Of a stretch of 64,000 nucleotides of DNA, positions 2,563 through 36,670 are shown piece after piece. Location of the stretch: positions 1 to 64,000 of the forward strand of contig CAVWBU010000028.1 of assembly GCA_963753345.1 (NCBI GenBank), read 5' to 3'. The position numbers and the translations under genes were made by a program. Positions within the stretch are counted from its first letter, which is position 1; each line of letters starts with the position of its first letter. Source of the DNA: an uncultured Fibrobacterota bacterium (GTDB taxonomy: Bacteria > Fibrobacterota > Chitinivibrionia > Chitinivibrionales > FEN-1185). The notes beneath the pieces are model-generated. The model had not been told where the DNA came from, did no database searches, and saw nothing but the letters and a program-made list of their open reading frames with translations.

Positions 2563-4088
2563 AACAGGCGGCCTTCCTTTTCCTCGGTCTTAACGTAATC
2601 TTCGGTCTTTCGGGGTGCGGCAACAATCCGAGTTTTACCGCGGTGCAGAAAACAACAGCGGCAGCGGATCGGACGCCTGTTCTCAAACCCGATTACACCA
2701 ACATCACCATTCCGCCGAATATCGGACCGCTTAATTTTGTCATAGAAGAAAGCGGCGCATGTTTCTTTACGCGCATTGCCGGAAAAAAGGGAGAACCGAT
2801 CTTGGTATTTTCAAAGAATGCGGAAGTCCGCATTCCACCCGGGCCGTGGCGCAGACTTCTGTTGAAAAACCAGGGCGATACGCTGAGCGTTGACGTCTGC
2901 GTCAGGCAATCCGGCGGATCGTGGCTCGGGTTTAAAACCGTAAAAAACGCGGTATCCGGCGACCGGACCGATCCGTACATTATGTACCGCACCTTGAGCG
3001 TTCTCTACATTTATTCCCGGGACCTCTGCCTGTATCAGCGGGACCTCCAAACCAACAGCGAATCCGAAATGCTGAATGCGCTGAATTTTTTCCCTGGATG
3101 CTGCAACTGCCACACCTTTTCCGGTAACGATCCTTCTAAAGCGTTTTTTCATATCCGCACCCAGGACTTCGGCAATTCCGCGCTGGTGGTCACCAACGGG
3201 ACCGTCGGCAAGATACCGACAAAGTTCGGATACACCTCATGGCACCCGAGCGGGAAACTCATCGTATATTCCGTCAACAAGGTGGACCAGTGCTTTCATG
3301 CCGCGTGGAAAGACCCGCGCGACGCATTCGATTTCAATTCCGGTCTCAAAGTGTACCGGGTTGACAAGCACAAAATCGTCACCGTGCCGCAGATTTATCA
3401 GGAAACCGCGCTCGAAACATGGCCGTGCTGGTCCGCGGACGGAACGTGTCTTTATTTCTCAAGCGCCCCGCTTACCTGGAGCGACTTCAAGACCAACCCG
3501 CCGGAAAATCTTGAAAAGACGCGCTACAGCCTGATGCGCGTCCCGTACAACGAGAACAGCGACTCATGGGGCACCGTCGATACGGTTTTGTCCGCCAATA
3601 CCACGGGGAAGAGCATCACGCAGCCGCGTGTCTCGCCGGACGGCAGATTCATCGTGTTCTGCATGCATCCCTACGGGCCGTCGCCCTACTTGCAGCCGGG
3701 CAGCGATCTTTACATCATGGACATTGCGACCCGGCACTACGAGCCGCTGGCCGTGAACAGCGAATGGTCCGAGTCGTGGCACTCATGGTCGTCGAACAGC
3801 CGCTGGCTCGCATTTACAAGCAAGAGGAACGGCGGCATCATGGGAAGGATATATCTGGCGCATATCGACGGCAACGGCAAGGCCGCAAAGCCGTTCATCC
3901 TTCCGCAGACCGATCCCCGGTTTTACGATTCGTTTGTCAAGGTGTATAATATTCCCGAATTCGCCATTGCCCGTTTTACCGTACCGCAGCAGGCCCTGGT
4001 GTCCGCGATACACTCGTACAAGCATCTTGATGTCGATGTTCCGGCGGTTACCGGAGCAACGCCGAGGGTTCCGCCGAAGCCGGAATAA
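2559..4088 (+). CDS. TolB-like (PD40 repeat) beta-propeller lipoprotein
   Basis: Lipobox LSGC; PDYTNITIPPNIGPLNF; CCNCH; PD40-like repeats WHPSGK, WSADG, PRVSPDGR, WSSNSRW. Confidence 0.85.
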   Translation: MKQAAFLFLGLNVIFGLSGCGNNPSFTAVQKTTAAADRTPVLKPDYTNITIPPNIGPLNFVIEESGACFFTRIAGKKGEPILVFSKNAEVRIPPGPWRRLLLKNQGDTLSVDVCVRQSGGSWLGFKTVKNAVSGDRTDPYIMYRTLSVLYIYSRDLCLYQRDLQTNSESEMLNALNFFPGCCNCHTFSGNDPSKAFFHIRTQDFGNSALVVTNGTVGKIPTKFGYTSWHPSGKLIVYSVNKVDQCFHAAWKDPRDAFDFNSGLKVYRVDKHKIVTVPQIYQETALETWPCWSADGTCLYFSSAPLTWSDFKTNPPENLEKTRYSLMRVPYNENSDSWGTVDTVLSANTTGKSITQPRVSPDGRFIVFCMHPYGPSPYLQPGSDLYIMDIATRHYEPLAVNSEWSESWHSWSSNSRWLAFTSKRNGGIMGRIYLAHIDGNGKAAKPFILPQTDPRFYDSFVKVYNIPEFAIARFTVPQQALVSAIHSYKHLDVDVPAVTGATPRVPPKPE

Positions 4089-21328: not shown

Positions 21329-21510
21329 TTTAATGTAGAATGTAGAATGGAAATACAAAATCCGTTTTGCAATCTACAATTAAAGAGGCATTTACATCCG
21401 CTTTCCGCAATCCGTATAGATTGTGAATCCTTGGATTGATGATTGAAAAGTGTTTCAATCCGCATTCCGCAATACCTGCCCTGAGCTTTGTCGAAGGGAT
21501 CAATCCACAA

Positions 21511-21700
21511 TTCTCCGTGGGTGCCCCCACACAGGAGTCTGGTTCCGCAACTGCTTCCACTTGGGGGCCACCCAGGAGGGGGAGCGCCCGCCCAACAGGA
21601 AGGGCGGAAAGCGCCGCAGGACACCGCAGGCCGAAGGCCGAGGAGGCCGGAGCGAGGGGGACGACCCTTGGAAGTACCCGACGGGGTAAACTTCCCCCAC
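21511..21700. repeat. Family B structured repeat, copy 1 (with internal insertions)
   Basis: CTCCGTGGGTGCCCCC..GGGGGCCACCCAGGAGGGGG..GGGGGA..TTCCCCC; homologues at 32697, 44141 and 53526. Confidence 0.85.
21662..21688. mobile_element. 27-nt insertion module CGACCCTTGGAAGT plus hairpin, copy 1
   Basis: Absent from the other family B copies; removing it restores the GGGGGAA-AC-TTCCCCC hairpin. Confidence 0.7.
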
Positions 21701-21739
21701 AATTTCTTTTTATAATTCTTCAATCTCCTTTGTTCGCAT

Positions 21740-22978
21740 TTACCAAACACACGCAATCTTCCCGGTCTGAGTTTTTCCCGCATATTCCGCCAAGTACACG
21801 TAGAGTCCCGGCTTGACCCTCTTTCCCTGTTCGTCGATGTTGTTCCACACCGGATTCCTTCCTATCAAGTGACGGACCGCACGGCCCTGCTCGTCGCACA
21901 CCGTCACGGCGATCAGCCGATCTCGGTCCCCGCCCCTTGCCGCAAACGTTGTCCGGCCATGCGCGGCATTGGCGACAACCTGTATACTTTGGGGGGCTTC
22001 GGGAATACCAATTTCAACATCACGTACCCCGCTCTGCGTAGAACCCTGCCACACGCGCACGTAATCGATGTCGAACGTGTCAATGGCGCTCAGGTTCGGC
22101 AGCGTGCAGGCTGCCGCCCGGCACCAGTCGTTTTCCACCATCTGCTGGATCAGGATATAACCAGGGGTCCGGGCGATGTTCGAGTTGTTGGTGCCGGGCG
22201 TGGGGAATGTGCCGGCGGCTGTCCCGTCGAGGTAAAAGGTGAGGTGGTCGGCTTCCCAATCCACGCCGATGGTATGGAACGCGTTGGAAAAATCCCCGGC
22301 CGGTCCGGTGCCGTTGTTGCCGGTTCCGGTGTTGGGGGTCCAGCTCTTGTTGCGGGCCGAGTCGGTGGGCAGGCCGTCGAACCAGTTGTAATGCATCCAC
22401 ATGGTGCGCGGGTCGTTGCCCAGCACTTCCAGAATGTCAATTTCCCATTCGTAATTGTAATTCTTCTTGTCTGGGAGCATCCAGAACGCGCCGAAAAACC
22501 CTGAGACATTGACGATCTTCAGCCGGGCCTCAATGTACCCGTACAGGAACGAAAACTTGTACGGGGTGAGCGAGTTGGTGTTGGCGCGGGCGGAGATAAG
22601 CTCGCCCGACTTGTACGAATTCGCGAACGTGGTGATTCCGGGATTTGGCTGCGCCACAAGATGGCACACCCCGTTGCTCACCTGGATCTGCGACGGATAG
22701 TAATTCTCCCGCCCGTTGTTGAACGAGCCCACCCCGCCCCAGTCGGCATAGGGATTCCAGATTGACGTATCGTAGGCCGTGCCGCTAAAATCATCGTTGA
22801 GGATCAGCTTCCAGGAGCTCATTCCGGTCGGCAGGGGAACGGCGGCCGGCGGCAGCGGATCTGCTGCAAGCACGCGCTCGGGCAAACCGGTGATGAAAAG
22901 CCCAAGCCAAAAAGAGCAGTAAACCGGCACCCATTGACCGCGTGATGCGGAAAGGATTCTTCCTGTCTGCAGCTTCAT
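21740..22978 (-). CDS. Glycoside hydrolase family 16 with FlgD-Ig/CTD-like tail
   Basis: GGAGG RBS; DDFSG, FLYGYIEAR, AFWML, WEIDILE, DIDYVRVWQ; tail DEQGR..PGLYVY. Confidence 0.9.
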   Translation of the reverse strand: MKLQTGRILSASRGQWVPVYCSFWLGLFITGLPERVLAADPLPPAAVPLPTGMSSWKLILNDDFSGTAYDTSIWNPYADWGGVGSFNNGRENYYPSQIQVSNGVCHLVAQPNPGITTFANSYKSGELISARANTNSLTPYKFSFLYGYIEARLKIVNVSGFFGAFWMLPDKKNYNYEWEIDILEVLGNDPRTMWMHYNWFDGLPTDSARNKSWTPNTGTGNNGTGPAGDFSNAFHTIGVDWEADHLTFYLDGTAAGTFPTPGTNNSNIARTPGYILIQQMVENDWCRAAACTLPNLSAIDTFDIDYVRVWQGSTQSGVRDVEIGIPEAPQSIQVVANAAHGRTTFAARGGDRDRLIAVTVCDEQGRAVRHLIGRNPVWNNIDEQGKRVKPGLYVYLAEYAGKTQTGKIACVW

Positions 22979-23065
22979 TTTTCCTCCTTGTTCAAAGACC
23001 ATTGCCCGGGCAATTCGCTATTTGCAGCGCCATACGTTCTTGCACAAATAACGTTTCTTTTCTAT

Positions 23066-24796
23066 CTACTTCCTGTTTCCGGCCGGAAGCGTTTCCAACG
23101 AGTCCGCATCCCGGGGATTCCTGCGGACCGTTGCCAAGGGAACATGCCTGTATGTTGCATATTCTTTTTGCGCTCCACGTGCTTCGCCGAGTCTGTGTAC
23201 GGCCGGCGTAAACAAGGAATCCGCGGCAATGGCCCGGCCGAAACACTCTATTGCCAATGTTGTGTCGCCAAGCATTTCATAAGCATTGCCGCAGTTGAAA
23301 TTCGCAAGGACATCGGTTGAGTCTTTGGCAAGCAATGCTTTGAACAAAGGAATGGCTTCCTTGGGCCTTCCCTGCTTGAGATAGATGAGTCCAAGGTTCA
23401 ATCGAGGCATCCATTGATCCGGTCGCAGCGCAAGCGATGCGGCAAAACAACGAAACGCCTCGTGGTCGCTGTGGTGGGAAAGCAGGTAATTTCCTTTGAT
23501 ATTATAGGCAAAATAATTCGCCTTTGAAACGGCAAGTCCATGGTCGCCGAGGGTAACATCGTTTTGCCAATAATCAACCTGTTTTCGCGTTTGATACGTG
23601 GCACAACAGAGCACAACAAGAGAACCGGTTACAACAATGACTTTGACGATGCTGCTGCGGGACGCAATATCGCGCAGAAGCCATGCGATAATGATGAAAA
23701 GCCCGATAAGGGGAACATAGGTATACCGGTCTGCCATTGCCTGGGATCCGACCGGGACAATGCCGATGACGGGCACCAACGTTCCAAGAAACCAGAGCCA
23801 CCCCATAATTACGTAAGGCATTTTTTTGGCAACGGTGAGCGCAACGCCTGTCAACGCGATGAGGATTATGCAGGAAAACAACAGGTCCCACAACGACGGC
23901 ATGACAACAGGAAAGGGATAAAAGAACGAAAGGTTTACAGGCCAGAACATTTTTCCGATGTAGCTCACATAAGAAATTAGGGAATTTGCAAGTCCCGACA
24001 AAAGGGACAATGAATCGGTTTTTCCAATTGCTTCTCCCCCGTGCTGTGCCAGGACGGTAATGACGCATGAAGCCGCTGCGAGACAAAAAAACGGTATCTT
24101 GTCGACAAGTAGGAATAACAGGTCTTTTTTACGGATGGCATTGCCGGGCGTCAGGTCAGGTTCGGCATGCAAAGCGTGCAGGCGAAGAGGCCAGAAATCA
24201 AGTAGCAGCAGCACAAAGGGCAGCGTTACGAGCATGGGCTTTGCCATGAGGCCAAAGGCAAACGCAATAACCGCCCCAAAATAGCAGAGCCGCCTTCTGC
24301 GGATGGAAAATGATGAATAGAACAGAAGGGTGACCATCATGAAGAACGTGCTCAAAACATCTTTTCTTTCGGACACCCAGGCAACCGATTCGACGTGGAG
24401 AGGGTGAAGCCCGAAGAGCGCCGCGACAAGCGCGCTCCTCCATACGGCGCCCGTTGCGCCCCTGAGAAGCAAAAACAGAAGTAGCGTGTTGAGAACGTGA
24501 AATACCAGGCTGGTAAGATGGTGTCCCGCCGGTTTAAGCCCGTAGAGTTCACAGTCGAGCGTATGCGAAAACCATGTGAGCGGGTGCCAGTTTGCGGCAT
24601 AAAACGAGGTAAATGACCAGAGAATGTTTTTCTTACTAAATCCGGAGGTGATATGATAATTATTGGAGACGTACTGATAGTCATCGAAGGTGATAAAATC
24701 ACATTTGTCAATCTTCCAATACGCAAACAACGTGGCTGCAACAAGCAGAAAAAGTATCAAATACAACGATTGTCGCGACGGTGTTGCGCTGTTCAT
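23066..24796 (-). CDS. GT-C type membrane glycosyltransferase (TMTC-like) with C-terminal TPRs
   Basis: FDDYQYV, NWHPLTW, HPLHVESVAWVSERKDVL, ADRYTYVP, YWQND; TPR tail. Confidence 0.9.
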   Translation of the reverse strand: MNSATPSRQSLYLILFLLVAATLFAYWKIDKCDFITFDDYQYVSNNYHITSGFSKKNILWSFTSFYAANWHPLTWFSHTLDCELYGLKPAGHHLTSLVFHVLNTLLLFLLLRGATGAVWRSALVAALFGLHPLHVESVAWVSERKDVLSTFFMMVTLLFYSSFSIRRRRLCYFGAVIAFAFGLMAKPMLVTLPFVLLLLDFWPLRLHALHAEPDLTPGNAIRKKDLLFLLVDKIPFFCLAAASCVITVLAQHGGEAIGKTDSLSLLSGLANSLISYVSYIGKMFWPVNLSFFYPFPVVMPSLWDLLFSCIILIALTGVALTVAKKMPYVIMGWLWFLGTLVPVIGIVPVGSQAMADRYTYVPLIGLFIIIAWLLRDIASRSSIVKVIVVTGSLVVLCCATYQTRKQVDYWQNDVTLGDHGLAVSKANYFAYNIKGNYLLSHHSDHEAFRCFAASLALRPDQWMPRLNLGLIYLKQGRPKEAIPLFKALLAKDSTDVLANFNCGNAYEMLGDTTLAIECFGRAIAADSLFTPAVHRLGEARGAQKEYATYRHVPLATVRRNPRDADSLETLPAGNRK

Positions 24797-24860
24797 GGAA
24801 TAGGGAAAGATCCTTTAATGGAAAAGCCTTTATCGACCAACGCGCACCCGCGTAACCGCA

Positions 24861-26618
24861 TTATCTGATAACCGTCACCTTTTGCACCGCAGTATTCCTG
24901 TCTTTTGCGATGAAATAGATTCCCTCTGTTTTCAAAGACGTTGGATTAACGGTATTCCCCGCCATATTGTAAACCTTCAAATCTTCCATAGTATGAAGAT
25001 ACCGTTGCAAAAGCGCCGCCTTGATCGGGTTAGGCAGGCGGAGCACAGAGGCATTGGCGGTTTGCATTCCGTAGACTACACCGCCCGTGACTGGATACTC
25101 GTACGCGCCGATGTCCCATGCCGGGCCTTGCGGCCGCACAACACCGTCCTTGTCGTCCGTGAAATAGGTGCTCAGCGAAATCCCCGCATCTTTTGCCACC
25201 GTATCCGTTGACGCGAGATGCAGGTTGTTGTTTGCATTGTTCGGGGAATAACTGACAAATGCCGGTGCGTTGGTCTTGCCGTGCGGCTCCCTGGCGGCGA
25301 CCCAGCCGGCGGCCGAATAATCGGTGCCGTTGTAGTAAATATGTGGAGCTATGGTGCTGTTGTAATAGACGTTGGCGTCAAAAGAAAACGACGCATTGGT
25401 AAAACCGGTGCTGGCCGCGATATAGATATTCTGATACTGCGCCCCGTTGCCGCAGTTGTAGAAGATGTTGTTTTTTATTTCGTTGCCCGAACCGCTGGGG
25501 TTGCTGTTGAATCCGTTGAAGCGCACCGTCACAAAGCCGACATTTTTCCCGTTGTCAAAACCGGTGTTGTCCACAAAGGTGTTGTTGAGCAGCTTGAAGT
25601 TGGTGATGGAAGTCATGGCGTTGCTGGAGGAGTTGTACAACCGGAAATATTCCGGATAGGGGTCGATTACCTGCACTATGTGGAAGAGATTGTTGTAGAT
25701 CCACACGTCGTGCGGCGTTTTGTTGTTATAGCAGTCGTAATCGATATGCGAATCCCCCACGTTGGTGAACTCATTGTCGTAAATTTTATTGAAGTTGCCC
25801 TGAAGCTGGAACATGTCCGGATGCTGATCCGAGGTGATCACCGACGTTGCGGAGACCCTGAAGGTATTTCTGTAGGCGGACATCCCGCCGTAGGGCTGGA
25901 TGCCGTCCGGCCCGCCGCAGGAGTCGTTGTCCAGTGTCTCGATGGAATTATCATGTATCTTCACCTCATCCCACGTGGTTCCGTCCGCCCCCACCGCGAT
26001 CGCCGCATCACCCCGTATTTGTGTAAGATTTGAATATCTTATTTCGGTGCCCGCGGTTCCCGAGAACAGCGCCAGACCGTTGTTACAATTGGTGATATCG
26101 ATATGATCGATAATAACAGCCGTAATTCCATCACCGTAGATGGAGGTTGCCGCCGTGCGATTCGTAATATTGCGCAGGTTTTTCAAGCCGATGTGATTTT
26201 GTCCATTTACATTCCCGCTGATAGTAATGTAGCTGCGGCCGCTTAGGGCAATGCCGCTTACCGTCGCGTTATCTCCCAGCGCATCATAATCAAATACCGC
26301 GGTCCCGTTATGGCTCGCGTTGGCGGCATCCACCGTAATGGTAATCGGATTGCCCGAAGATCCACTTGCTCCGACCGACCATGACTCGGTATACGTTTTT
26401 GTTCCGCCGGACGGTCCGCCGCTGATGTAGACGAAGTCGCCCGGATGAACGCTTGACCATGCAATGTTCGAAAAATTCTTATAAGCGGTCGCCCACGACT
26501 GACCGTTTCCCGAAGCCGCCACCGCATTGTCGACATACCAGGAAGCTGCCCGTGCATCGCCGGCCCCGGACAGTATTGCGGCGAGTGCAACGAACATTGA
26601 TGCTGCTTGCTTATTCAT
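24861..26618 (-). CDS. Secreted right-handed beta-helix protein with choice-of-anchor-Q-like motif and CTD
   Basis: Signal peptide; GNGQSWATA; IYNNLF, NNTF, KNNIF repeats; DKDGVVRPQGPAWDIGAYEY; VYNMAGN..GIYFI. Confidence 0.85.
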   Translation of the reverse strand: MNKQAASMFVALAAILSGAGDARAASWYVDNAVAASGNGQSWATAYKNFSNIAWSSVHPGDFVYISGGPSGGTKTYTESWSVGASGSSGNPITITVDAANASHNGTAVFDYDALGDNATVSGIALSGRSYITISGNVNGQNHIGLKNLRNITNRTAATSIYGDGITAVIIDHIDITNCNNGLALFSGTAGTEIRYSNLTQIRGDAAIAVGADGTTWDEVKIHDNSIETLDNDSCGGPDGIQPYGGMSAYRNTFRVSATSVITSDQHPDMFQLQGNFNKIYDNEFTNVGDSHIDYDCYNNKTPHDVWIYNNLFHIVQVIDPYPEYFRLYNSSSNAMTSITNFKLLNNTFVDNTGFDNGKNVGFVTVRFNGFNSNPSGSGNEIKNNIFYNCGNGAQYQNIYIAASTGFTNASFSFDANVYYNSTIAPHIYYNGTDYSAAGWVAAREPHGKTNAPAFVSYSPNNANNNLHLASTDTVAKDAGISLSTYFTDDKDGVVRPQGPAWDIGAYEYPVTGGVVYGMQTANASVLRLPNPIKAALLQRYLHTMEDLKVYNMAGNTVNPTSLKTEGIYFIAKDRNTAVQKVTVIR

Positions 26619-26900
26619 CGTTTCTCCTTTTGCCCGGTCGTCGCTGGAGAGAGCAGGCGATAAGGCCGCTGTTTCAACCTTGCCTGATCACGGGAATGCT
26701 TCAAAGGTAATATAGGGATATTTGGGCACAATTTGCAAGAAAATCCTCGCTTGCGCACCGCCAGGAAATTAGCGATTATCTCAAACATTTTCGGGCAAAA
26801 CCGATTATATTAATGGGGGAACATTTGGCAGCTTCCTTCAACCAGATTAGTATAGTTGACGACACCGGAAATTAAACCACTTAAACCAAAGGATCTTTGT

Positions 26901-28579
26901 ATGAATCTCAACAAATTCTGCCGGTCGGTTGCGATCTTCAGGAACATCATGGTTATGGCAATTGGTCTTTTCGTGGTCGGGACAACCTACGGACAGAGCG
27001 TTGTATGGATGCGTTCATCCAGCGGCGGGGACAAGCTAAAGACCCAAGCCCTTACGTTTGCCCCAACAGGAACTGCGCCGGCGGTCAGCATTACCGTGAG
27101 CCCCGGCGACCAAGTATCAGACCATGGTGGGATTCGGCGGTTCTTTCACCGATGCAGGCGCCTGGTCTTTGAACTACCTTAGCGCGACAGACCGCGCGGC
27201 AGTGGTGGCAGCTTACTTTGGGCCGTCGGGCGCAAACTATGAAGTCTGCCGCTCACAGATGGGTGCCAGCGATTTTTCCGCCGGCCTGTACAGCTACGAC
27301 GACCAGGCCGGAGACTATTCCCTGAGTCATTTCACCATGGCACACGACTCCGTATATATGCTCCCCTGGGAAAAAGAAGCGATTACCCTCAACCCCGATC
27401 TCAAAATATTCGGATCGCCGTGGAGCGCTCCCGGTTGGATGAAAACGAGTGGCCAAATGGATAACGGCGGAACATTGCTTCCGAGTTGCGACACCACCTG
27501 GTCGCTTTATTTTGTCAAGTGGTATCAGGCATACAAGGCCTTTGGGGTGACGCCATGGGGAGTAACAGTCCAGAACGAGCCGCGGCGCGGTCCAATCCTG
27601 GCCGTCCATGACCTTTACGGATGTTGCAGAGCGCGATTTTGTAAAGAACTACCTTGGGCCTATGTTGGCAAGAAACGGTCTTGGTCCAACCGTACTCAAT
27701 CTCATGTTTCTCGATCATAACAGGGACATGATGGTCCAATGGGCAAACACCTTTTACGCAGATGCCACCGTGACCGGCATGGTCTGGGGTGAGGCGATTC
27801 ACTGGTACGACTACCAGAACCTGTTCAGCGCCGTCAATCAGGTTTACACGCAGTACGATATTGCCGGTCCTCATAAGCACATCCTTGCAACGGAACAGTG
27901 CATCACGGGCTTCAATCAGAACAATCCTCCGTCGTGGCAAAACAGCGCCGAACTATATGCCCACGACATCTGGGGTGATTGCACAAACGGTTCCGAAGGC
28001 TGGGTCGATTGGAACATGATACTTAATCAACAGGGAGGCCCGAACGTATCCAACAACTGGTGCGATGCCGGGATCCTTATCAACACTGCGGCAAAAACAT
28101 ACCAATTCAGGCCGGTTTACTATGCCATGGCCCAGTATTCGAGATATGTCCGGACCGGAGCGGTGCGCATAGGCTGCACGGCTGCCGGCGCCAATTCTCC
28201 GGAAGTGATGGCGTTTAAGAACCCTGACTCCAGCTACGTCGTCATCGCGCACAATGGCGCGAACGCCTCATACAACGGCCGGGTCGTTATCGGGAGCACC
28301 GAGATAGATTATGCCACCACGCCCTATTCCATCGATGATTTCGTATGGTACCCCAACGGGGTTTCGGTCACCAATAATGTCAGCAAAGTCCACTCTGCCG
28401 CGAAAAGCAACCTGACCGCATGGCGGCACGTGATGGGCCTCAACAGTACACCGTACCAGCAGGCTGCCGGTTCGGAAAGCTACACGGTATCGGGCAAACG
28501 GATCGCGCAGTCATCCGCGGTCCGTGTCGGCGCCGGCGTATACGTGGACAAACCAAGCGACAACTCAGTGGCGAAGTAG
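26901..28579 (+). CDS. Glycoside hydrolase family 30 with CTD, two +1 frameshifts (~27105, ~27583)
   Basis: YQTMVGFGGSFTD, MGASDFS, SPWSAPGWMK, VQNEP, AIHWY, LATEQC, WVDWNM; frames join if one base is removed at each site. Confidence 0.85.
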
Positions 28580-28585
28580 GCACAC

Positions 28586-28624
28586 AAGGAACCCCCGCTT
28601 TATGCAGCGGGGGTTCCTTTTTTT
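28586..28624 (+). terminator. Rho-independent terminator after GH30
   Basis: AAGGAACCCCCGCT / AGCGGGGGTTCCTT stem followed by a T-run. Confidence 0.85.
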
Positions 28625-28770
28625 GGTGCGAAGATGCATGCGGCCTCTGCTTCATGGCCTTCCTTGAGATAGTAAAGGACCACGGCCACAGGCCGTGGCT
28701 TTGATGAGGGGGTATAACCCCCGAAATCAAAGAAAAGCGCGTCGGCGCTTTTGCGTAACATTGTGCACCA

Positions 28771-28797
28771 CGACCCTTGGAAGTCCCTGACGAGGGA
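28771..28797. mobile_element. 27-nt insertion module, copy 2
   Basis: CGACCCTTGGAAGTCCCTGACGAGGGA; removing it restores the perfect hairpin ACCACGCCC-ATA-GGGCGTGGT. Confidence 0.7.
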
Positions 28798-28898
28798 CGC
28801 CCATAGGGCGTGGTCTCTTTTCGAGAAAACGCCACAGGCTTACCACAAAAGTCCTTTCAGGCTGCACAAAATAAATTTCCTGGTAGATTAGATGAATT

Positions 28899-28926
28899 TT
28901 GACGGACGTTGTTTTTATTTTATATT
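28899..28926 (+). promoter_or_regulatory. Possible sigma70 promoter TTGACG-N16-TATATT
   Basis: Consensus-like boxes about 190 nt upstream of the 29118 start. Confidence 0.4.
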
Positions 28927-29117
28927 GTAATAGTCCGGCAGTATCGCCCTGCTGTCGCCGTGTAACCAGTTTCGGAACAATAACCTCCGGCGGGTTTCCG
29001 GATTCCGGCGTTGAAAGAGTGCGCCGGAGGCTGGAAAGAAAAGCGTCGGCCTTTACAAAAGCGTCAAATGATTTCCAAAAGACATTCCACCAAACTTTTA
29101 TCAAAGGAGTCTTACGA

Positions 29118-30545
29118 ATGATGAAACACAGGCTTTGCACTGCAGCGATTATCAGCCTTGTGTGCCTGAGCGGTTTGCTAATGGCCGCAAACGCCGAAGG
29201 GATTGACACTGCAAGCTCAACAGCATTGTCGCCGGGTCTGACCACGCTCGGCATGCGTTTCACCGGTTTTCTGTCCTCAGAATTCGGTCAACTGGACAAT
29301 CCCTACATGCTTTCACAGTCGACCGGGCATCAGGATGTCATGAGAACTTACGTAAATTTCGGCGTCGCAAAGCAGTTTGGCGACCGGTTCCAGGTTCAGG
29401 CCGCGTTCGAGGGAAAGATGTATTACAACTCGTTCAACCAAAATGAGAAAGGCGGCGTGGAAGGATTCTTCCTGCCCGCGATGTATTACTCACTTTACTT
29501 TGACCGGGCCTTTGGCAATTTCTACCTCGGTGATGCCGCATCGCCGTACCTGCAGTTCACCCTGGGATACTTTCCGTTCAAGTACAATCCGGAAGCCCGC
29601 GATCTGGGGGAATATCTTTACAGAAGCGGAGCCTACCCGGCGGTTCTCTTCAATCAATTCGATTTTGCGATGGCAAGACTTCTGGGCTTGAAGGTGAGCA
29701 GCGATCTTGGGGGCTTTTTTCACCAGGACCTTCTTCTGACTGCGTCCACCGATATGCCGCCGTTTTTCGATTTGAACCTTGGTTATATCGCAACGTTCGA
29801 TGCCGCGAAAATCTTCAACATAAGCATAGGCGGCATGTATCAAAGTCTCGTGCCTGCCGATGAAGGCGTGACGTCTCCCCATACGGAGTCTCCCGGAGCT
29901 TTTCCCGCATCCAACGGCAATGCGTACAATGTTGTGACGGACAGCACCGGAGCCGTGGTTTCTGCGGATTATTACACAGCCGCGGGCCTCAAGCTCATGG
30001 CGCGTTTTTCATTTGACCCCAAGCGTTTCTGCCAATCGTGCGACCACTTTACGTTCATAGGAAAAGAGGGATTGAAAATCTACGGCGAAGCGGCAATACT
30101 GGGCGTGCAGAGCTATCCTGCGAGCCAAGACAACCCCTACGGTTACGACACGCTCATGCACAAGATTCCGATCATGCTGGGCCTGAACCTGCCGTCGTTC
30201 GACTTCGGGAAATTCAGCATCTTCGACGTGCTTACGGGGCAGGTCGAGTACTACGGCTGCACCTACCCGAACAATTATCAATACAAGGACCAGGCCGTCT
30301 ATCAGCCGGTTCCGGTCCCGTCCGGCCAAATTCACCTGGATGCCCACAACTACGCCAGTCTTGATAACTGGAAATGGGCCGTCTATGCACAGAAAACCTT
30401 CAAGAACGGCCTTTTTATCGTGGGACAGGTCGCGTGCGACCATATCCGGAACGAATCGCCCGTCAATAATTTCTACGATTCGGAGGAAGCGTTGCGCTCC
30501 GATCGTTCCTGGTGGTGGGTGCTTAAGCTGGGATATAAATTCTGA
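29118..30545 (+). CDS. Putative outer-membrane beta-barrel protein
   Basis: AAGGAG RBS; signal peptide; GYFPFKYNPEARDLGEYLYRSGAYP motif; ends WWWVLKLGYKF. Confidence 0.75.
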   Translation: MMKHRLCTAAIISLVCLSGLLMAANAEGIDTASSTALSPGLTTLGMRFTGFLSSEFGQLDNPYMLSQSTGHQDVMRTYVNFGVAKQFGDRFQVQAAFEGKMYYNSFNQNEKGGVEGFFLPAMYYSLYFDRAFGNFYLGDAASPYLQFTLGYFPFKYNPEARDLGEYLYRSGAYPAVLFNQFDFAMARLLGLKVSSDLGGFFHQDLLLTASTDMPPFFDLNLGYIATFDAAKIFNISIGGMYQSLVPADEGVTSPHTESPGAFPASNGNAYNVVTDSTGAVVSADYYTAAGLKLMARFSFDPKRFCQSCDHFTFIGKEGLKIYGEAAILGVQSYPASQDNPYGYDTLMHKIPIMLGLNLPSFDFGKFSIFDVLTGQVEYYGCTYPNNYQYKDQAVYQPVPVPSGQIHLDAHNYASLDNWKWAVYAQKTFKNGLFIVGQVACDHIRNESPVNNFYDSEEALRSDRSWWWVLKLGYKF

Positions 30546-30714
30546 CAAGACCCGGGAACCAGTCCCCTGCCGGACAGGCGCAACGAAGCCTTGTCCGGCA
30601 GCAGCGGCTATTTGTTTTATCATGTTGCGCGATTGTCAAGCAGCCATCCGGAAATTGCAACCAACGCATCCTCTGCGGAAAACCCCGATGACGGAAGAAA
30701 ATAAGGGCGGGTGA

Positions 30715-31272
30715 ATGTCAAGCCATCGCACGGCATCCGTCATTGCGCTCTGGGCGGGCATTGTCGCGCTCACGCTGGGCATCGGCTTCATCGATTACGT
30801 CACCGGCTACGAGTTCAATTTCTTTGTTTTCTATTTTCTTCCCATCAGCATGGCGGCATGGTTTCTCGGAATAGTGCCTGCCGTGGCCATGTCGCTGGTT
30901 TCGGTCACCATCTGGTATCTTGCCGACTATTACACCGGCCACCGGTATTCAACCTACCTGTTTGCGATCTGGAACACGATAATACTTCTCGTGTCATTTC
31001 TTGCCATAGGCTGGACCATGGCGCGGTTGCGCGAACTGCTTCAAAGGGAACGGCAAGTCCGGCAGAAACTGGAGCAGACCATTTCGGAGGTGAAAGTGCT
31101 GGAAGGCATTCTCCCCATTTGCGCCAGCTGCAAAAAGATCAGAAACGACAAAGGAGAATGGCAGCAGATCGAACAATATATCAGACAGAAAACCAACGCC
31201 GAATTCACTCACGGCCTGTGCCCGCAATGCGGGCAGAAGCTCCTGCGCGATGCCGGTATCGGCGGCAACTGA
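30715..31272 (+). CDS. Membrane sensor (DUF4118-like) with C-terminal Cys-rich domain
   Basis: Four TM segments, a coiled coil, then LPICASCKKIR..EFTHGLCPQC. Confidence 0.8.
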   Translation: MSSHRTASVIALWAGIVALTLGIGFIDYVTGYEFNFFVFYFLPISMAAWFLGIVPAVAMSLVSVTIWYLADYYTGHRYSTYLFAIWNTIILLVSFLAIGWTMARLRELLQRERQVRQKLEQTISEVKVLEGILPICASCKKIRNDKGEWQQIEQYIRQKTNAEFTHGLCPQCGQKLLRDAGIGGN

Positions 31273-31331
31273 CGGGAAGCTTGGTTTTTTGCAACGCGGG
31301 TTGTCCCGCATAATCCGAGGAGGCATGCTTT

Positions 31332-32351
31332 ATGACGCACATCAAATCGCTCTGTCGTGTTTCGGTCCTGTCCGCGGCGATGTTTTTGGCACTGGCCTGC
31401 GTCTGGCAATCAACGGCCGGCGCAACGGCGAACCGCCATCATGCTTCGCACGCGGTGCAGCCGCGCTCATTGGAAATGCAAGGCGCAAAGGATGCGAGCC
31501 AGCCCGGCCAGAAAACCATTGACCAGGATCTCGACACCCTTTTCGCAAGGACAAAAACCACGTTCGACAAAATGGCAACTTCCGCGGTTCTAAAGTTCCC
31601 CAAGCCAAAGCCGGTGAACGCCCTTTTCTGGAAGACGCTCAAGGCCCACCAGCCATGGCATTCGCTGCTCCGGACCGACAAGAAGGGTGCGGTTGTCAAT
31701 GAGGTGATCAGAATCGAGGGCGAGTCGAAGGAGAAGCGCTCGGTGGCCGGCGAGGTATGGTTCGCGCAGGTTTCAAAGACCATGAAAGAGCATTTGAGCA
31801 TCGTCAAGAACGAGAAGACCGGCAGATACTACCTGATCTGGGCCGCGCCCATCGTTGCGAAGGTAAAGGGATCGGAAACGTTCCAGGGCGCGGTGGCGGC
31901 GCAAATCGACCTGTGGGACTGTTTCGACCGGTATTCCGACAAATCAACGACGCCGTTCAAGATCCACATCCTGGACCGCGTGGTCCTATTCGAGCACCTG
32001 TGGAGGGACACCATCAAGTACGCCGAGAAGCACCTTATTGTTCCCGGAATCGACAAGATCACGGTGCGGTATCCCAGGATGGAGAACGAGGCGGCCGCCG
32101 TGGGCGCTGCCGATTCCGTGGCGCTCGAGTATGCGCGGCTGGATTCGATACGGATCAAGGCTGCAGGCGATTCGGCCGCCAAGGCGGCTTTGGTAAAAAA
32201 GGCCAGGTCGCATAGGGCCGCCATCATAACGATAGCGGCAATAATCGGGTTGCTGGTCCTCCTCGTGGTGGTGGTCCTGTACGCAAGAAGCCGCAGGCGG
32301 CCGGAAAAAACCGGCACGGATCAAGGCAGAGACCGTTTCGGCAATCTTTGA
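31332..32351 (+). CDS. Exported Cache/PDC-like domain protein with C-terminal membrane anchor
   Basis: GGAGG RBS; signal peptide; EVWFAQV..TGRYYLIWAAPI..GAVAAQIDL; C-terminal TM. Confidence 0.65.
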   Translation: MTHIKSLCRVSVLSAAMFLALACVWQSTAGATANRHHASHAVQPRSLEMQGAKDASQPGQKTIDQDLDTLFARTKTTFDKMATSAVLKFPKPKPVNALFWKTLKAHQPWHSLLRTDKKGAVVNEVIRIEGESKEKRSVAGEVWFAQVSKTMKEHLSIVKNEKTGRYYLIWAAPIVAKVKGSETFQGAVAAQIDLWDCFDRYSDKSTTPFKIHILDRVVLFEHLWRDTIKYAEKHLIVPGIDKITVRYPRMENEAAAVGAADSVALEYARLDSIRIKAAGDSAAKAALVKKARSHRAAIITIAAIIGLLVLLVVVVLYARSRRRPEKTGTDQGRDRFGNL

Positions 32352-32421
32352 CCTTGGCTGAGAAGAAGACAAGATACGAGAAGAGTTGGGCGTTCCGCAG
32401 CGTTATAAGAGAATAATGGAG

Positions 32422-32607
32422 TTGGGCGTTCCCCTCGCGGGGCTCGGGTCGGCCGTCCTTACGGTCTCGGCCTTCGGCCTCGGGCTGCCTGCCACAAGGG
32501 CCTGCGGGCCGTGGTCAGGCAGCACCGCGCTCCAGCGCGGCCTCCAGTCCTGCCTAACGCGCGGCAGAAGAGATATATTCAGTCAAGTGGATTCTCTTAC
32601 GCCAGAC
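32422..32607. repeat. Family C multi-stem structured element, copy 1
   Basis: Colinear motifs and compensatory stems shared with 53276-53460. Confidence 0.75.
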
Positions 32608-32696
32608 TGAATTCTCAAGGAGAAAACAACGGCTTCTCTTTGAACTTCTCAACTCCTAAACTCCTCAACTTTTCAACACTTTTTCTTTTCAACTGC

Positions 32697-32824
32697 TCTC
32701 CTTGGGTGCCCCCACACAGGTGCTTGACTCTTGCAACTGTCTCCACAAGGGGTGCACCCTGGAGGGGGTAGCGGAGGACCGCTGAAGGCGGGCCGGTGCG
32801 AGGGGGGGCCTTCCCCCGCCAGAC
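32697..32824. repeat. Family B structured repeat, copy 2
   Basis: CTCCTTGGGTGCCCCC..GGGGTGCACCCTGGAGGGGG..TTCCCCC. Confidence 0.8.
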
Positions 32825-32859
32825 ATCTGTTTGTATTTGTATTTAGTATTTGTCAACCG

Positions 32860-35800
32860 TCAACTGTCAACTTCTTCTACCCCCCCCCCCCCCCCGTCCA
32901 GCACTCCCCTCACCGCCTGCAAAAGGTCGCGCACGGCATACGGCTTGTGCAAAAAACGGAAGTTGTTCTCCTTGATAAAATCCCAATGCGCCTTTTCGTC
33001 AGTGTAGCCGCTCGTGATGAGCACCTTGAATTTCCCGCGTTTGAGCAGATCCTGCACCATCAGGATGCCGGACCTGTCGGGGAGAACGACATCGCTGAAC
33101 ACCAGGTCGAACTTGCCGTTTTCCCTTTCGAACAGCTCCATCGCCTCTTTCGCGTTCGAAACCGCAAACACGGAATATCCGTTTGTCAATAGCAATTCCT
33201 TCGCGATCGCGCGCACCTCGGCCTGGTCCTCAACGATCATGACCCGCTCGCCTTTTCCTTCCAGGGAAGCAGCGCCGGCCTTCTCTTTGCTTTGCTGTTC
33301 GGGACTCGCTGACGAAGCCGGAAAATAGGCGCTGAACGTGGTCCCGTGCCCGGGTTCGCTGTAAACGTCTATCCAGCCCTTGTGCTGCTGGACAATGCCG
33401 AACACCACCGACAATCCGAGCCCTGTTCCCTTGCCTGCCGGCTTGGTGGTGAAAAACGGCTCGAAAATGTGCTGCTGCGTCAGTTCATCCATGCCGGTGC
33501 CGGTGTCCGACACCGAGATGCGGACAAAGCGTCCGGGGCGGGCCGTCTTGCTCGTTCGGCAATACTCTTCGTCAATGGTCACGTTCTCGGTCTTCATGAA
33601 TATTTTTCCGCCTTCCGGCATTGCGTCCCTTGCGTTCACCGCCAGGTTCATAAGCATCTGCTCGATGTTCCCCTCGTCGCCGAGAATGGTCCAGACGCCC
33701 TTTTCCAGGCCGGTCTCAATCACAATGTCCTCACCGATAAGCCTGTCGAGCATTTTGAGCAGGCGGGTGATGGCGGCGTTGACGTCCATGGGCATCGGCT
33801 CCATGTGCTGTTTCCTGCTGAAAAGAAGGAGCTGGCGCACCACGCCCGCTGCCTTGTCCGCCGCAACGCTCACCTGTCTCAGATCCCTTTGCACCGGATC
33901 GGATTCGTCTATTTTCCCAATGGCAAGGGTCGTGTAGCCGGAAATGGCGCAGAGAAGATTGTTAAAGTCGTGCGCTACGCCGCCGGCCAATGTGCCCATG
34001 GCCTCCATTTTCTGGGCCTGGAGAAGCTGGATCTGTAGGTTTTCCCTTTCCTTTTCATGCTGTTTGCGCTCGGACACGTCGCGGAAAATCCCCAGCATAT
34101 AGTCGCGGCCGTTCATTTGTACCCGTGCGGCCCTGATTTCCACCGGCGTCAATGCGCCGGATTTGGAAATGATCTGGTCGTCGACCGTGATACCCGGATC
34201 GTCTGTCTTATGCTTAACAAAGGCCGCCGATTGACCGTTGAGAAGATTTTGGGCCGGATGAATAACCGACTGCATCTGCCCCACCAGTTCCGTTTTGTCC
34301 ATGCCGACCATGCGGCACAATGCCTGGTTGCATTCCACTATTTTTCCCGTTTCGGAATCGGCAAGCGCAATGCCGTCCTTGGCGTCGTCGAAGAGCGTGC
34401 GGTAACGCTCTTCGCTTTCTTGCAATGCCTTCTCCGATTGCTTGCGTTCGGTGATGTCATGTACATTTTCTACAACCATGGTGACATTGTTATTATTGTC
34501 AAATATTGGATAAGCGCTTACTTCCTTGAACAGCTTGGTATATTCGTTGTAATATTCGACAACAACAGGTTTCCCCGAGTTAAAGACACCAAAGGGCTCG
34601 CATGGTTCACAGGGCGAGTCTCGATGAATGAATGCCTCAAAGCAATGAGAACCTATGGGGAATTCGGTACAGCCGGCATAGAGAGGAGATTTCCAATTGG
34701 ACTTTAGAATTCTTAGATTTCTGTCAACGACAGCAATGAGATCCTCAGAGGAGCTAAATACACTCTCGAGTAACTTGTTAGTATTCTGCAGTTCCTCCTC
34801 GCTCTTTTTGCGTTCGGTGATGTCGCGCTCGAGCGAAACTGCAAAAGTCTTTGAACCGACTTGCATTTCCGTGGCCGAGCACTCGAAATCCCGGACCGTA
34901 CCGTCCTTGCATCGGTGTTTTGTCTCGAATACTTTCCCTAGTCGTGAAAGGATATTTTGCCGCATCTCATTGATCGTTTGGGAACCATCGAACGCCACAT
35001 TTATGAAAGAAACCGGCTGGCCTATCAGCTCGTCTCGCGCGTATCCGAGGAGCCTCAAGGCCGCGTTGTTCGCATCCCGGATCACGGGCATGCCTTTCGG
35101 CGCAATCTCCAGTTGAAGTATGATGTCCGCTGCCTGCTCGAAGAGGATTCGATACCTCGCCTCGCTCTGGCGCAATGCCTTTTCCGCGAGTTTGCGTTGT
35201 GACAACCATTCGGTGATATCGCGGATGTTGCACTGGATCACTTTCTTTCGGCCCACAACATAGACATTGCTCACGAACTCCACGTCGATGCGCCGCCCGT
35301 CGGCGGTTTCCAGGGGCAGATCTACGTAACGGATGTATTCCTTTCGCTGCAATTCCAGGAAATTTTCTTTGTTGGCAATTATGTCCTTGAAGAGCCCCAG
35401 GTCCCATATTGTTTTTCCCATGAACTGTTCATGTGAATAACCCAGCAGTTTAATGAGAAATGGATTTACGTCTACAACCATCCCCGTCTCGGAATCAAGG
35501 ATCAGAATTCCATCTTTCGCCGATTCGAAGAGCCGACGGTACCGGGCTTCCGAAATGCTTAAAGCCTCAGTCGTCAGTTTGCGCTGGATTTCCGCCTCGG
35601 CAAGCTTTTTCCTGTTCTCTATTTCCTCGCACGCGTGCTTCACCTTGACGGGCAATATTTCGTGAAACTGAATGGACTTGGCGACATATTCCACGGCCCC
35701 GAGCTTCATCATCTCAACGGCGATCATCTCGTCGCCGTGACCCGTGATGATCATAAACGGGATTTCGAGGCCGCGGCCGCGCACCTTCTCCACGAACTCC

Positions 35801-36012
35801 CTTGCCGTCATGTCGGGCAGGGAATAATCGAGCAGCAGCAGCACATTGTCGGTATTTGACAATGCCGACACACGTTCCAGCGCTGTGGCGCCCGTAAAGA
35901 ACCCCTCGGATTTCATTCCTGCCCCGTCAAGCAATCTGCGGATTGACTTGTTGAGCAGCTCGTCGTCTTCGACGACAAGAATGGTGGTGGCGGATTTTGT
36001 GTTTTTGTTCAT
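32860..36012 (-). CDS. Hybrid histidine kinase REC-PAS(x4)-HisKA-HATPase-REC
   Basis: LVVEDDE; multiple DITERK PAC ends; [33 protein letters not shown]-terminal SDVVLP receiver. Confidence 0.95.
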
Positions 36013-36025
36013 GGGTCGGCCTTTG

Positions 36026-36484
36026 TTAATGCGTTCCGTTTTTGTTCCCGTTTATCGTCGGCACTTCCACCACCAGAAGGAACAGCCCCAGCTTGCGCAC
36101 CGCATCAATGAACTTGTCGTATTCGATGGGCTTGGTGACGTAATTGCTGCACCCGAGTTCATGGCACTTGTCAACCTCTCGCGGATCGTCGGTGGTGGTG
36201 ATCATTATCACCGGCAGCTTTTTGAGCTCTTTATCATCCTTTACCCGGCGCAGCACCTCGATGCCGTCAACCTTGGGCATGCGTATGTCGAGCAGCAGAA
36301 GGTAGCCGGTGTCGCGCTTCCGATGCGGCCCCTTGCCATTTTCAAACAGGAAATCCAGGGTTTCCTGGCCGTCCTTGAACCGGATAATTTCGTTGAGCAG
36401 GCCCGCGCGCCGCAGGTTGCGGTCTATGAGCGTGGCGTGGCCGTCGTCGTCTTCCGCGATAAGGATGATGACTTCTTTTTTCAT
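36026..36484 (-). CDS. Single-domain response regulator
   Basis: IAEDDDGH, LLDIRMPKVDG, ITTT, YVTKP. Confidence 0.95.
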   Translation of the reverse strand: MKKEVIILIAEDDDGHATLIDRNLRRAGLLNEIIRFKDGQETLDFLFENGKGPHRKRDTGYLLLLDIRMPKVDGIEVLRRVKDDKELKKLPVIMITTTDDPREVDKCHELGCSNYVTKPIEYDKFIDAVRKLGLFLLVVEVPTINGNKNGTH

Positions 36485-36539
36485 GGGAATCCTTTCGGAA
36501 ATTGATTAAGAATGCCTGTTTGTTTTCTTTTTATCTTCT

Positions 36540-36670
36540 AACCTCACCCCGGCCTTCGGCCACCCCTCTCCCACAGGGAGAGGGGAATTCATGCTTGTTT
36601 TTCTTTCGCCCCTCTCCCCGGGGGCGACCCTTGGAAGTGCCCGAAGGGGCAAGAGGGGCCGGGGGTGAGG
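36540..36670. repeat. Inverted CCTCACCCC..CCCTCTCC..GGAGAGGG REP-like pair
   Basis: CCTCACCCCGGCC..CCCCTCTCCCACAGGGAGAGGGG and its inverted counterpart ending GGGGGTGAGG. Confidence 0.8.
36625..36651. mobile_element. 27-nt insertion module, copy 3
   Basis: CGACCCTTGGAAGTGCCCGAAGGGGCA; removing it restores CCCCTCTCCC-CGG-GGGAGAGGGG. Confidence 0.7.

Follow-up and report, generated by a model that had tools for sequence, protein, structure and literature searches.

The DNA analysed here (the window, 64,000 nt) is positions 1 to 64,000 of contig CAVWBU010000028.1 in the assembly (GCA_963753345.1) of an uncultured Fibrobacterota bacterium of the order Chitinivibrionales, a genome of 4.5 Mb in 55 contigs, 56% G+C and 94% complete (G000 below). 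At three places in this window, a repeat with further copies elsewhere in the genome is interrupted, within a hairpin, by the same small unit, here named M. M is 27 nt long and consists of a 13-nt head followed by a 14-nt hairpin: each window copy opens with CGACCCTTGGAAGT, and a 5-bp stem with a 4-nt loop completes it. Read directly from the sequence, the three copies are exact in length and all lie on the + strand (Table 1), as the original prediction had it. The 14-mer that was said to be invariant does match all three exactly; its base 14, a T in the window, is a C in most other copies, and because this is the first base of the stem, the invariant core is 13 nt. M very probably moves as a discrete unit of insertion: in at least 43 unrelated flank contexts it is either there in full, with constant ends, or missing altogether. 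Taken as a whole, the evidence is best explained if M is a protein-less, non-autonomous mobile DNA module of 27 nt, a reading that we consider probable, with reservations.

Deleting the 27 nt restores the host palindrome at all three sites, which direct reading confirms. Removal of copy 1 joins GGGGGA to AACTTCCCCC (21656-21661 and 21689-21698); removal of copy 2 joins ACCA to CGCCC-ATA-GGGCGTGGT (28767-28770 and 28798-28814); and removal of copy 3 joins CCCCTCTCCC-CGG-GGG to AGAGGGG (36609-36624 and 36652-36658). Target-site duplications, predicted to be missing, are indeed absent from every window copy and from every other context. The 14-mer has 3 exact matches within the window, all on the + strand; when up to 2 mismatches were allowed, shuffled windows averaged 0.54 matches, and 3 were attained in 2 of 100 shuffles. 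A search of the whole genome, proposed as a check on the idea, returned 79 matches with at most 1 mismatch, against 1 for the reversed control, and about 87 M copies in G000 after a hairpin filter. Further copies thus exist, their boundaries are fixed at 27 nt, and empty sites occur both in paralogs and in a relative, the opposite of what had been named beforehand as grounds for giving up the idea of a very small non-autonomous unit.

Table 1. M copies, host repeats and related units (positions without a contig label are those of the window; C labels are contigs of G000; a caret marks the insertion point, here and in the text)
Feature	Position	Strand	Remark
M copy 1, CGACCCTTGGAAG + TACCC-GACG-GGGTA	21662..21688	+	subtype typical of family-A hosts
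Terminal hairpin of family-A repeat, GGGGGA / AACTTCCCCC, split by copy 1	21656..21698	+	
Family-A host repeat of copy 1, GC-rich, multi-hairpin, ~200 nt	21499..21702	+	paralog matches (query 250-453)
M copy 2, hairpin TCCCT-GACG-AGGGA	28771..28797	+	subtype common in Myxococcota
Family-F host hairpin, ACCA^CGCCC-ATA-GGGCGTGGT	28767..28814	+	M in 5' arm; boundary ambiguous by 1 nt (A)
Family-F host repeat, ~205 nt with M, 178 nt without	28671..28875	+	
M copy 3, hairpin TGCCC-GAAG-GGGCA	36625..36651	+	
Host palindrome, family B/E, CCCCTCTCCC-CGG-GGG^AGAGGGG	36609..36658	+	M in 3' arm
Empty family-B/E hairpin, CCCTCTCCC-ACA-GGGAGAGGG	36564..36584	.	40 nt upstream of copy 3
Promoter-plus-leader copies (G000)	C26:286640-286900; C19:158340-158680; C41:269960-270200; C21:204040-204340, 291340-291560; C18:95600-95900		
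M2 copies (G000, n=6)	C36:60522, C26:98737, C18:96426, C16:176363, C27:286547, C19:158521		

How often are such sites occupied? Family-A hairpins in G000 are empty in 184 cases and filled in 13, and the insertion point is constant, between GGGGGA and the loop. The repeat around copy 1 is identical at 96 of 98 positions to an empty copy at C35:191175, the nearest relative of every filled family-A copy is an empty one (13/13), and the ortholog of copy 1 in the related genome G001 is empty, with GGGGGA followed directly by GACTTCCCCC. In family F, five 178-nt paralogs lack exactly the 27 nt, give or take the 1-nt ambiguity of the boundary, and a diverged subfamily carries M at the equivalent place with a doubly compensated stem (TACCT...AGGTA); at the G001 locus orthologous to copy 2, the entire family-F repeat is missing. 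The empty sites claimed for other family-B copies were found as well: the CCCCTCTCCC/GGGAGAGGGG hairpins of G000 are filled in 4 cases and empty in about 100, and in G004 and G007 the spacers orthologous to copy 3 contain either an empty element or no element at all. Most M copies are hosted by a large composite repeat with three alternative M sites, for which approximate patterns give filled/empty counts of 30/217, 6/126 and 7/30. Several specific sites in abundant host repeats are occupied by M in a minority of cases, about 2-15% depending on the site. Its subtype tracks the site: all 13 family-A copies are TACCCGACGG(G/A)GTA, and those at the composite-repeat sites are CACCCGA(A/C)GGGGTG. 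M also lies in a promoter-plus-leader repeat that precedes unrelated genes in G000 and measures about 140 nt (TTGACA-17-TATATT followed by a conserved leader); the C19 copy is interrupted at C19:158476, at GACGTCGG^GAACGGG, and the C41 copy contains degenerate units.

Three further observations concern these hosts. A sixth family-F paralog (C47:146400-146594) carries an 11-nt insert, CGATATCCCTG, exactly at the M point of copy 2; it has the appearance of an M that has decayed or lost a part, and is possibly an excision scar. At C34:46214, the left flank of composite-repeat site 1 is joined, at an M of the family-A type, to a family-A right flank, a chimera which suggests recombination between different host repeats at M. 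Finally, window positions 32361-32901 are a highly repeated element, partly related to family A and with many joints to 21550-21700; its summed contig depth is 617 in run X1, versus about 12 in most other bins.

The fold of M was assessed in an alignment of 35 distinct 27-mers, each selected for having 4 or more of the 5 pairs of the second hairpin; this choice biases the percentage paired (96.4% of alignment cells) and leaves the first helix unaffected. The 15 of 50 distinct rows that were dropped are either interrupted by nested or degenerate units (4) or lack the hairpin (11). The second hairpin has a 5-bp covarying stem and a GANG loop, and the head, CGACCCTTGGAAG, is near-invariant across phyla. 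That the stem covaries, a claim of the original prediction, is upheld by the alignment, in which 5 of 8 pairs change on both sides; the covariation score is 0.416 versus 0.134 for shuffles, none of 500 reaching it, and slid partners score at most 0.087. In the head, positions 1:13 (CG 33, UA 2) and 5:9 (CG 31, GC 4) also pair, which suggests that the head, too, folds as a small hairpin, made up of C:G, two non-canonical pairs, C:G, C:G and the loop CTT. On the M strand, G-T pairs outnumber A-C pairs 10 to 2, a weak hint that this is the folding strand. The ends of M, CGACCC... and ...GGGTA/GGGGA, are not inverted repeats. Neither the window nor 8 loci had an Rfam match that reached the gathering score, and two chance-level matches (E 0.28 and 0.86) were all that 7 array-bearing loci gave. 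A hammerhead-like reading of CUGACGAG was dropped, since most copies lack it.

What does M insert into? Its 43 contexts, which were clustered by their flanks and are not strictly independent, include other GC-rich repeats, the promoter/leader repeat, other M copies and open reading frames. Upstream, A is found at -1 in 28 and G at -2 in 26, with C or G at -3 and -4; downstream, C is found at +1 in 18, G at +2 in 18 and C at +4 in 25. The 5' flank therefore favours SSGA without being fixed. The preferred SSGA^CGNC resembles the end-to-start junction of M, GGGA^CGAC, which would also explain arrays. The original prediction held that the unit targets hairpins, and the window sites and several others are clean palindromes; as a general statement this is weakly supported statistically, because, with M removed, a predicted stem (4 bp or longer) contains the junction in 27 of 39 contexts (69%), compared with 84 of 156 control positions taken from the same GC-rich DNA (54%), and some copies sit in coding DNA without a hairpin. 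Among the 87 copies in G000, neighbours at most 300 nt apart form one direct and no inverted pair.

M is also a target for itself. Three cases in G000, and others in its relatives, have one M inside another at CGACCCTTG^GAAG, and the identical self-insertion point recurs in a metagenome-assembled genome (MAG) of the Kofleriaceae (L092). Position 1 is T and position 13 is A in the subfamily to which the inner copies belong; G005 has 26 members of it, G002 has 2 and G001 has 1. All 9 members that were examined are nested at this point, within M units of three host contexts. Head-to-tail arrays with a period of exactly 27 occur in Myxococcota and Gammaproteobacteria. A second unit, M2 (28 nt), is made of two 5-bp hairpins, TGCCC-CTTC-GGGCA and TCCCT-GAAG-AGGGA, the latter of a type also found as the second hairpin of M; three M2 copies lie after a TA inside the hairpin of M and three in the loop of a CCCCTCTCTT/AAGAGAGGGG palindrome. 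One locus of G001 (L203, G001:C222, ~3326-3350) shows triple nesting, a family-A hairpin containing an M with a T1..A13 M in its head; its second hairpin apparently holds a reversed CGACGCTTCGAAG-type unit as well.

Some copies lie within genes. One lineage of IS91-like transposase genes, represented in G044, G169 and G344, has taken up M at no fewer than six sites and in both orientations. The gene in G044, a Myxococcota genome, encodes Zn_Tnp_IS91 and Y2_Tnp domains and contains at least 5 M copies in both orientations, and G044 also has intact copies of it; the M copies of G169 (4/4) and of G344 (2/2) all fall within this lineage. Two insertion sites, KY^IT and WRD^GTR, are shared between genomes, and G044 and G169 have different M subtypes at the second. 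In-frame inserts of nine codons relative to an intact paralog are seen in these three Myxococcota genomes. M is coding-compatible, with nine codons open in 5 of 6 frames; the G169 frame is open over 564 aa, with the nine-residue inserts DPWKSPTGD (twice), RDDPWKSLK and VPRRGLPRV. The in-frame inserts indicate that M is tolerated as nine codons, and the mobile gene gives it a route between genomes. A MAG of the Natronospirales likewise carries two M copies in coding-looking DNA, a putative repeat protein judging by its translation. The IS91-like protein at L201 (G169:C211) has another nine-residue insert relative to the intact paralog, RASRCPEGY, with no recognisable M head; it may be a decayed or a different small unit. 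The window's own genome has an intact, single-copy IS91-family transposase gene without M (C26:285223-286656, L172:961-2394; 477 aa, Y2_Tnp), which is present in six near-identical copies in G002. A recurring sequence 3' of the G000 gene, considered as an IS91 end, proved to be the promoter-plus-leader repeat (TTGACA-17-TATATT).

Where else is M found? All 8 genomes of the window's family contain it, with exact-pattern counts of 71 (G000), 54, 33, 18, 3 (G004), 2, 1 and 1, and none of 33 genomes from other families of the order Chitinivibrionales does; within one genus, one genome has 71 copies versus 1-3 in others. A scan of all species genomes (596 Gb) matched at least 103 stretches. Among the matches listed, 73 of the 89 outside G000 complete the hairpin in the 3' half, which the search pattern left free; the remainder include singletons and a conserved coding stretch from Solirubrobacterales, which is within chance expectation for a search of this size. 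Full units, among the same listed matches, occur in Myxococcota (Myxococcales, Haliangiales/Kofleriaceae and 'delta' MAGs), in at least 7 MAGs of Gammaproteobacteria and, as a single copy, in one Bacillota MAG. The hosts are uncultured soil and peat bacteria from at least three phyla. In G041-G045 the counts are 54, 54, 20, 18 and 3, four Myxococcota MAGs accounting for the 18-54, and controls have 0. M was present in 5 of 401 sampled Myxococcota genomes (54, 54, 4, 4 and 2 copies), which points to horizontal arrival followed by local bursts. Flanking G+C differs between lineages (0.62-0.71 at Myxococcota loci versus 0.55-0.56 at Fibrobacterota loci), as do the M subtypes; both argue against mis-binning.

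How could a unit this short, with no gene of its own, move? In the explanation that we favour, an enzyme acting in trans would cut and join M at its ...GGGA^CGAC... junction and into similar SSGA^CG sites, and M would be moved as single-stranded DNA folded into a two-hairpin dumbbell. The single-strand route is a tentative proposal, somewhat short of an even chance; it is suggested because a 27-nt strand can close as a dumbbell, whereas a duplex circle of 27 bp cannot form, and because the repeatedly hit gene belongs to an IS91-like element, a type that transposes by a rolling-circle route. Within a host repeat family, M would spread mainly by homology-assisted copying (gene conversion or single-strand annealing at the fork), and true insertion into new contexts would be rarer. 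The link between subtype and site, the scatter of filled copies among near-identical empty ones and the chimera at C34:46214 together point to such copying as the source of most within-family spread, and copying would give each host site its own M subtype. Passage between genomes would be helped by riding in mobile genes such as the IS91-like element. In its boldest form, M would be the first ultra-small (27-nt) transposable unit that is near-identical across distant phyla, coding-compatible, able to colonise genes including mobile carriers, and moved via the dumbbell by an unrecognised site- and structure-specific enzyme of single-stranded DNA; we regard this composite claim as doubtful, probably wrong in some part.

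If homology-assisted copying does so much, is a dedicated enzyme needed at all? M could be a hairpin cassette copied by host replication and recombination alone, through gene conversion, fork annealing or template switching at hairpins. A distinct subtype at each host site is what such copying would leave behind, as are filled copies scattered among near-identical empty ones and the chimeric copy, and the lack of any candidate transposase that correlates with M is in keeping with it. Homology cannot easily account for identical 27-nt boundaries in 43 unrelated contexts, some of them coding DNA of another phylum without donor homology, nor for one self-insertion point reused in two phyla, an array period of exactly 27, or a 13-nt head that is near-invariant across phyla. 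Recombination without a dedicated enzyme is therefore unlikely as the whole account.

If there is an enzyme, which one? The original prediction named an HUH-type Y1 transposase supplied in trans, either a REP-associated tyrosine transposase (RAYT; REP, repetitive extragenic palindromic sequence) or an IS200/IS605-like TnpA, which would bind hairpins on single-stranded DNA and insert M 3' of a short word. The missing target duplication, the ends that are not inverted, a hairpin at each end of the unit and the preferred 5' word SSGA would all suit such an enzyme, and one survey does describe REPs that are inserted within small palindromes and leave hundreds of targets empty (PMC3733652). The gene content does not bear the proposal out: the Y1 domain PF01797 has no match in G000, G001, G041, G042 and G043, the genomes richest in M, nor in G003 and G007, and was detected in 6 of 14 known control genomes. 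Its counts within the family (G002 8, G004 2, G005 2 and G006 1, the last weak) do not follow those of M (G000 71, G004 3), among G041-G045 only G044 has a match, and M lacks both the GTAG/CGTC tag and inverted dimers. Rejected on this phyletic pattern, a Y1 enzyme appears very unlikely.

A second candidate is an IS91-family HUH Y2 rolling-circle transposase. With six or more M sites in both orientations in the one IS91-like lineage of G044, G169 and G344, M copies in these genes could reflect action in cis; Y2_Tnp is found in G000 and in 5 of 5 of G041-G045 versus 0 of 14 controls; and CTTG, which we take to be the IS91 target word, precedes the self-insertion point of M. The phyletic pattern fails here too: Y2 (PF04986) is represented in G000 by one intact gene, in G002 by six and in G004 by two, and is missing from the other five members of the family, G001 and G005 among them; Y2_Tnp occurs in 15 of 33 M-free genomes of the order versus 3 of 8 M-bearing ones. 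Moreover, the G000 protein and its Myxococcota counterpart share only 24% identity, most M flanks are neither CTTG nor GTTC, and the repeat that adjoins the G000 gene belongs to the promoter/leader family and provides no IS end. Y2 was rejected on the same grounds as Y1, and its role in moving M is highly improbable. Small GIY-YIG nucleases that recognise hairpin repeats are a further class of enzyme to consider. No GIY-YIG gene flanked by M was seen in four loci examined, and the published Ssn motif (SRM, HGTCWY N0-2 YYVSBRH N0-5 WNVSBRG N0-2 RNCYNB), which has 17 matches genome-wide, fits none of 94 M candidates taken with 25 nt on either side and on both strands. Least credible of all is a functional structured motif (protein-binding, RNA-processing or terminator) that is kept by selection and spreads by repeated recruitment: the strongly conserved head, the covarying stems, the many copies at gene ends and, weakly, the excess of G-T over A-C pairs would fit it, but self-nesting, period-27 arrays, both orientations within one gene and relative to flanking genes, occupation of only a minority of equivalent sites, and the lack of an Rfam family or of a terminator-like site at copy 1 would not.

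Several results weigh against a mobile module moved in this way. The first hairpin rests on two covarying pairs and thus on few independent events; it is absent from the ViennaRNA prediction, in which the second hairpin stands alone, and isolated 27-mers are no more stable when folded than their shuffled versions (z -0.2 to -1.5). The strict link between subtype and site, together with a FastTree phylogeny of 120 nt upstream, in which the 13 filled family-A copies need 13 state changes, as many as with shuffled labels (the sequences being short and poorly resolved), fits recombination alone within a family. Sequencing runs from peat, freshwater sediment and soil were examined as contigs, which break at repeats, and the ends left loose at 21661 and 28772 belong to empty paralogs; no allelic empty site can thus be demonstrated, and no filled/empty allelic pair within one population has been shown in them. 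M shows no strand bias relative to flanking genes or GC skew (52 versus 35), a weak test on draft contigs with crude open reading frame calls that are unreliable in GC-rich repeats. No enzyme candidate emerged, the genes between four pairs of neighbouring M copies being housekeeping ones (acyltransferase, YchF, aminotransferase, HAD, epimerase, ABC and BatA). Single-copy cases, such as the one copy in Bacillota, could stem from mis-binning of MAGs. Finally, M had no match among 2.9 million viral contigs, and a triple M array had no blastn match among PLSDB plasmids, so that a cross-phylum vector is suggested by the passenger copies in IS91-like genes only.

How does M compare with what has been described? 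Small dispersed repeats (SDR1-8) of Nostoc and other cyanobacteria, which Elhai and colleagues reported in 2008, are said to be protein-less units of 21-27 nt that are precisely inserted and nested, share a fold with compensatory changes, occur occasionally in genes, have an unknown mechanism and are described for cyanobacteria alone. M resembles them in behaviour, being 27 nt long, precisely inserted and nested, with a covarying fold; it differs in being near-identical in Fibrobacterota, Myxococcota and Gammaproteobacteria, in its 13-nt invariant head with one covarying hairpin, and in its period-27 arrays. Unlike miniature inverted-repeat transposable elements, M has neither terminal inverted repeats nor a target-site duplication. 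With the IS200/IS605 elements moved by Y1 enzymes, whose miniature derivatives insert 3' of a fixed word of 4-5 nt and are biased to the lagging-strand template, it shares the absence of duplications and inverted ends, hairpins at its ends, a preferred 5' word and a plausible single-stranded circular intermediate, but it is several times smaller than any described substrate, shows no strand bias, and the enzyme is not found in the M-richest genomes. Rickettsia palindromic elements (RPEs) and mitochondrial GC clusters or 'byp' elements are selfish hairpin DNA that lies in frame within genes and is tolerated as peptide. Most of these are longer than M (RPE-1 types and GC clusters), are lineage-restricted and are unrelated to it in sequence; RPE-4/6 and byps overlap its size.

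The literature supplies further parallels. SDR5 is reported there as precisely inserted inside HIP1 (PMC4390886). REPs, in a survey that also mentions RPEs (PMC3733652), are single imperfect palindromes, 20-40 nt long, one end of which carries a GTAG or CGTC tag; they are reported inside open reading frames, the CGTC class is without a known dedicated transposase, and in Thermomicrobium roseum the GTAG-23 REP lies inside CCGSSCC(n3,4)GGSSCGG, a target that is empty in hundreds of cases (Di Nocera et al. 2013). Like these, M is a short hairpin repeat in small GC-rich host palindromes that are mostly empty, and it too occurs in frame in coding regions. REPs, however, are tagged single palindromes with stems of 8-9 bp, mostly in inverted dimers, whereas M combines a 5-bp stem with a separate head, lacks GTAG and CGTC at either end (CGTC appears only in its reverse-strand loop) and occurs as singletons or direct arrays. 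The Ssn GIY-YIG single-strand nucleases act with NTS/SRM hairpin repeats (Chenal et al. 2025, PMC11893778), and NTS is a 28-nt hairpin repeat of hundreds of copies, read as single-stranded DNA by a small trans-acting protein and spread across phyla. It is not described in that text as a block inserted into other repeats or genes, and M fails the SRM pattern. Apart from supplementary files, the literature searched yielded papers on REP/RAYT, HIP1 and Ssn, with no mention of the 13-mer head and nothing on M.

Cyanobacterial SDRs and tag-less or CGTC REPs have been without a mechanism since 2008. Exact boundaries, a head that is invariant across phyla, the reusable self-target CGACCCTTG^GAAG and uneven copy numbers in sister genomes make M a tractable case: phylogenetic profiling can name candidate enzymes, and an oligonucleotide of 27 nt suffices for a biochemical assay. 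If the proposal is true, a site-specific enzyme of single-stranded DNA with a 27-nt substrate would be a useful tool. Other repeats, leaders and proteins are all reshaped by M, which annotation pipelines will therefore mistake for divergence. In behaviour, by analogy, M is closest to the cyanobacterial SDRs and to REPs lodged in palindromes; what is new in it is near-identity across three phyla, a fixed self-target, period-27 arrays and the repeated in-frame colonisation of a transposase gene.

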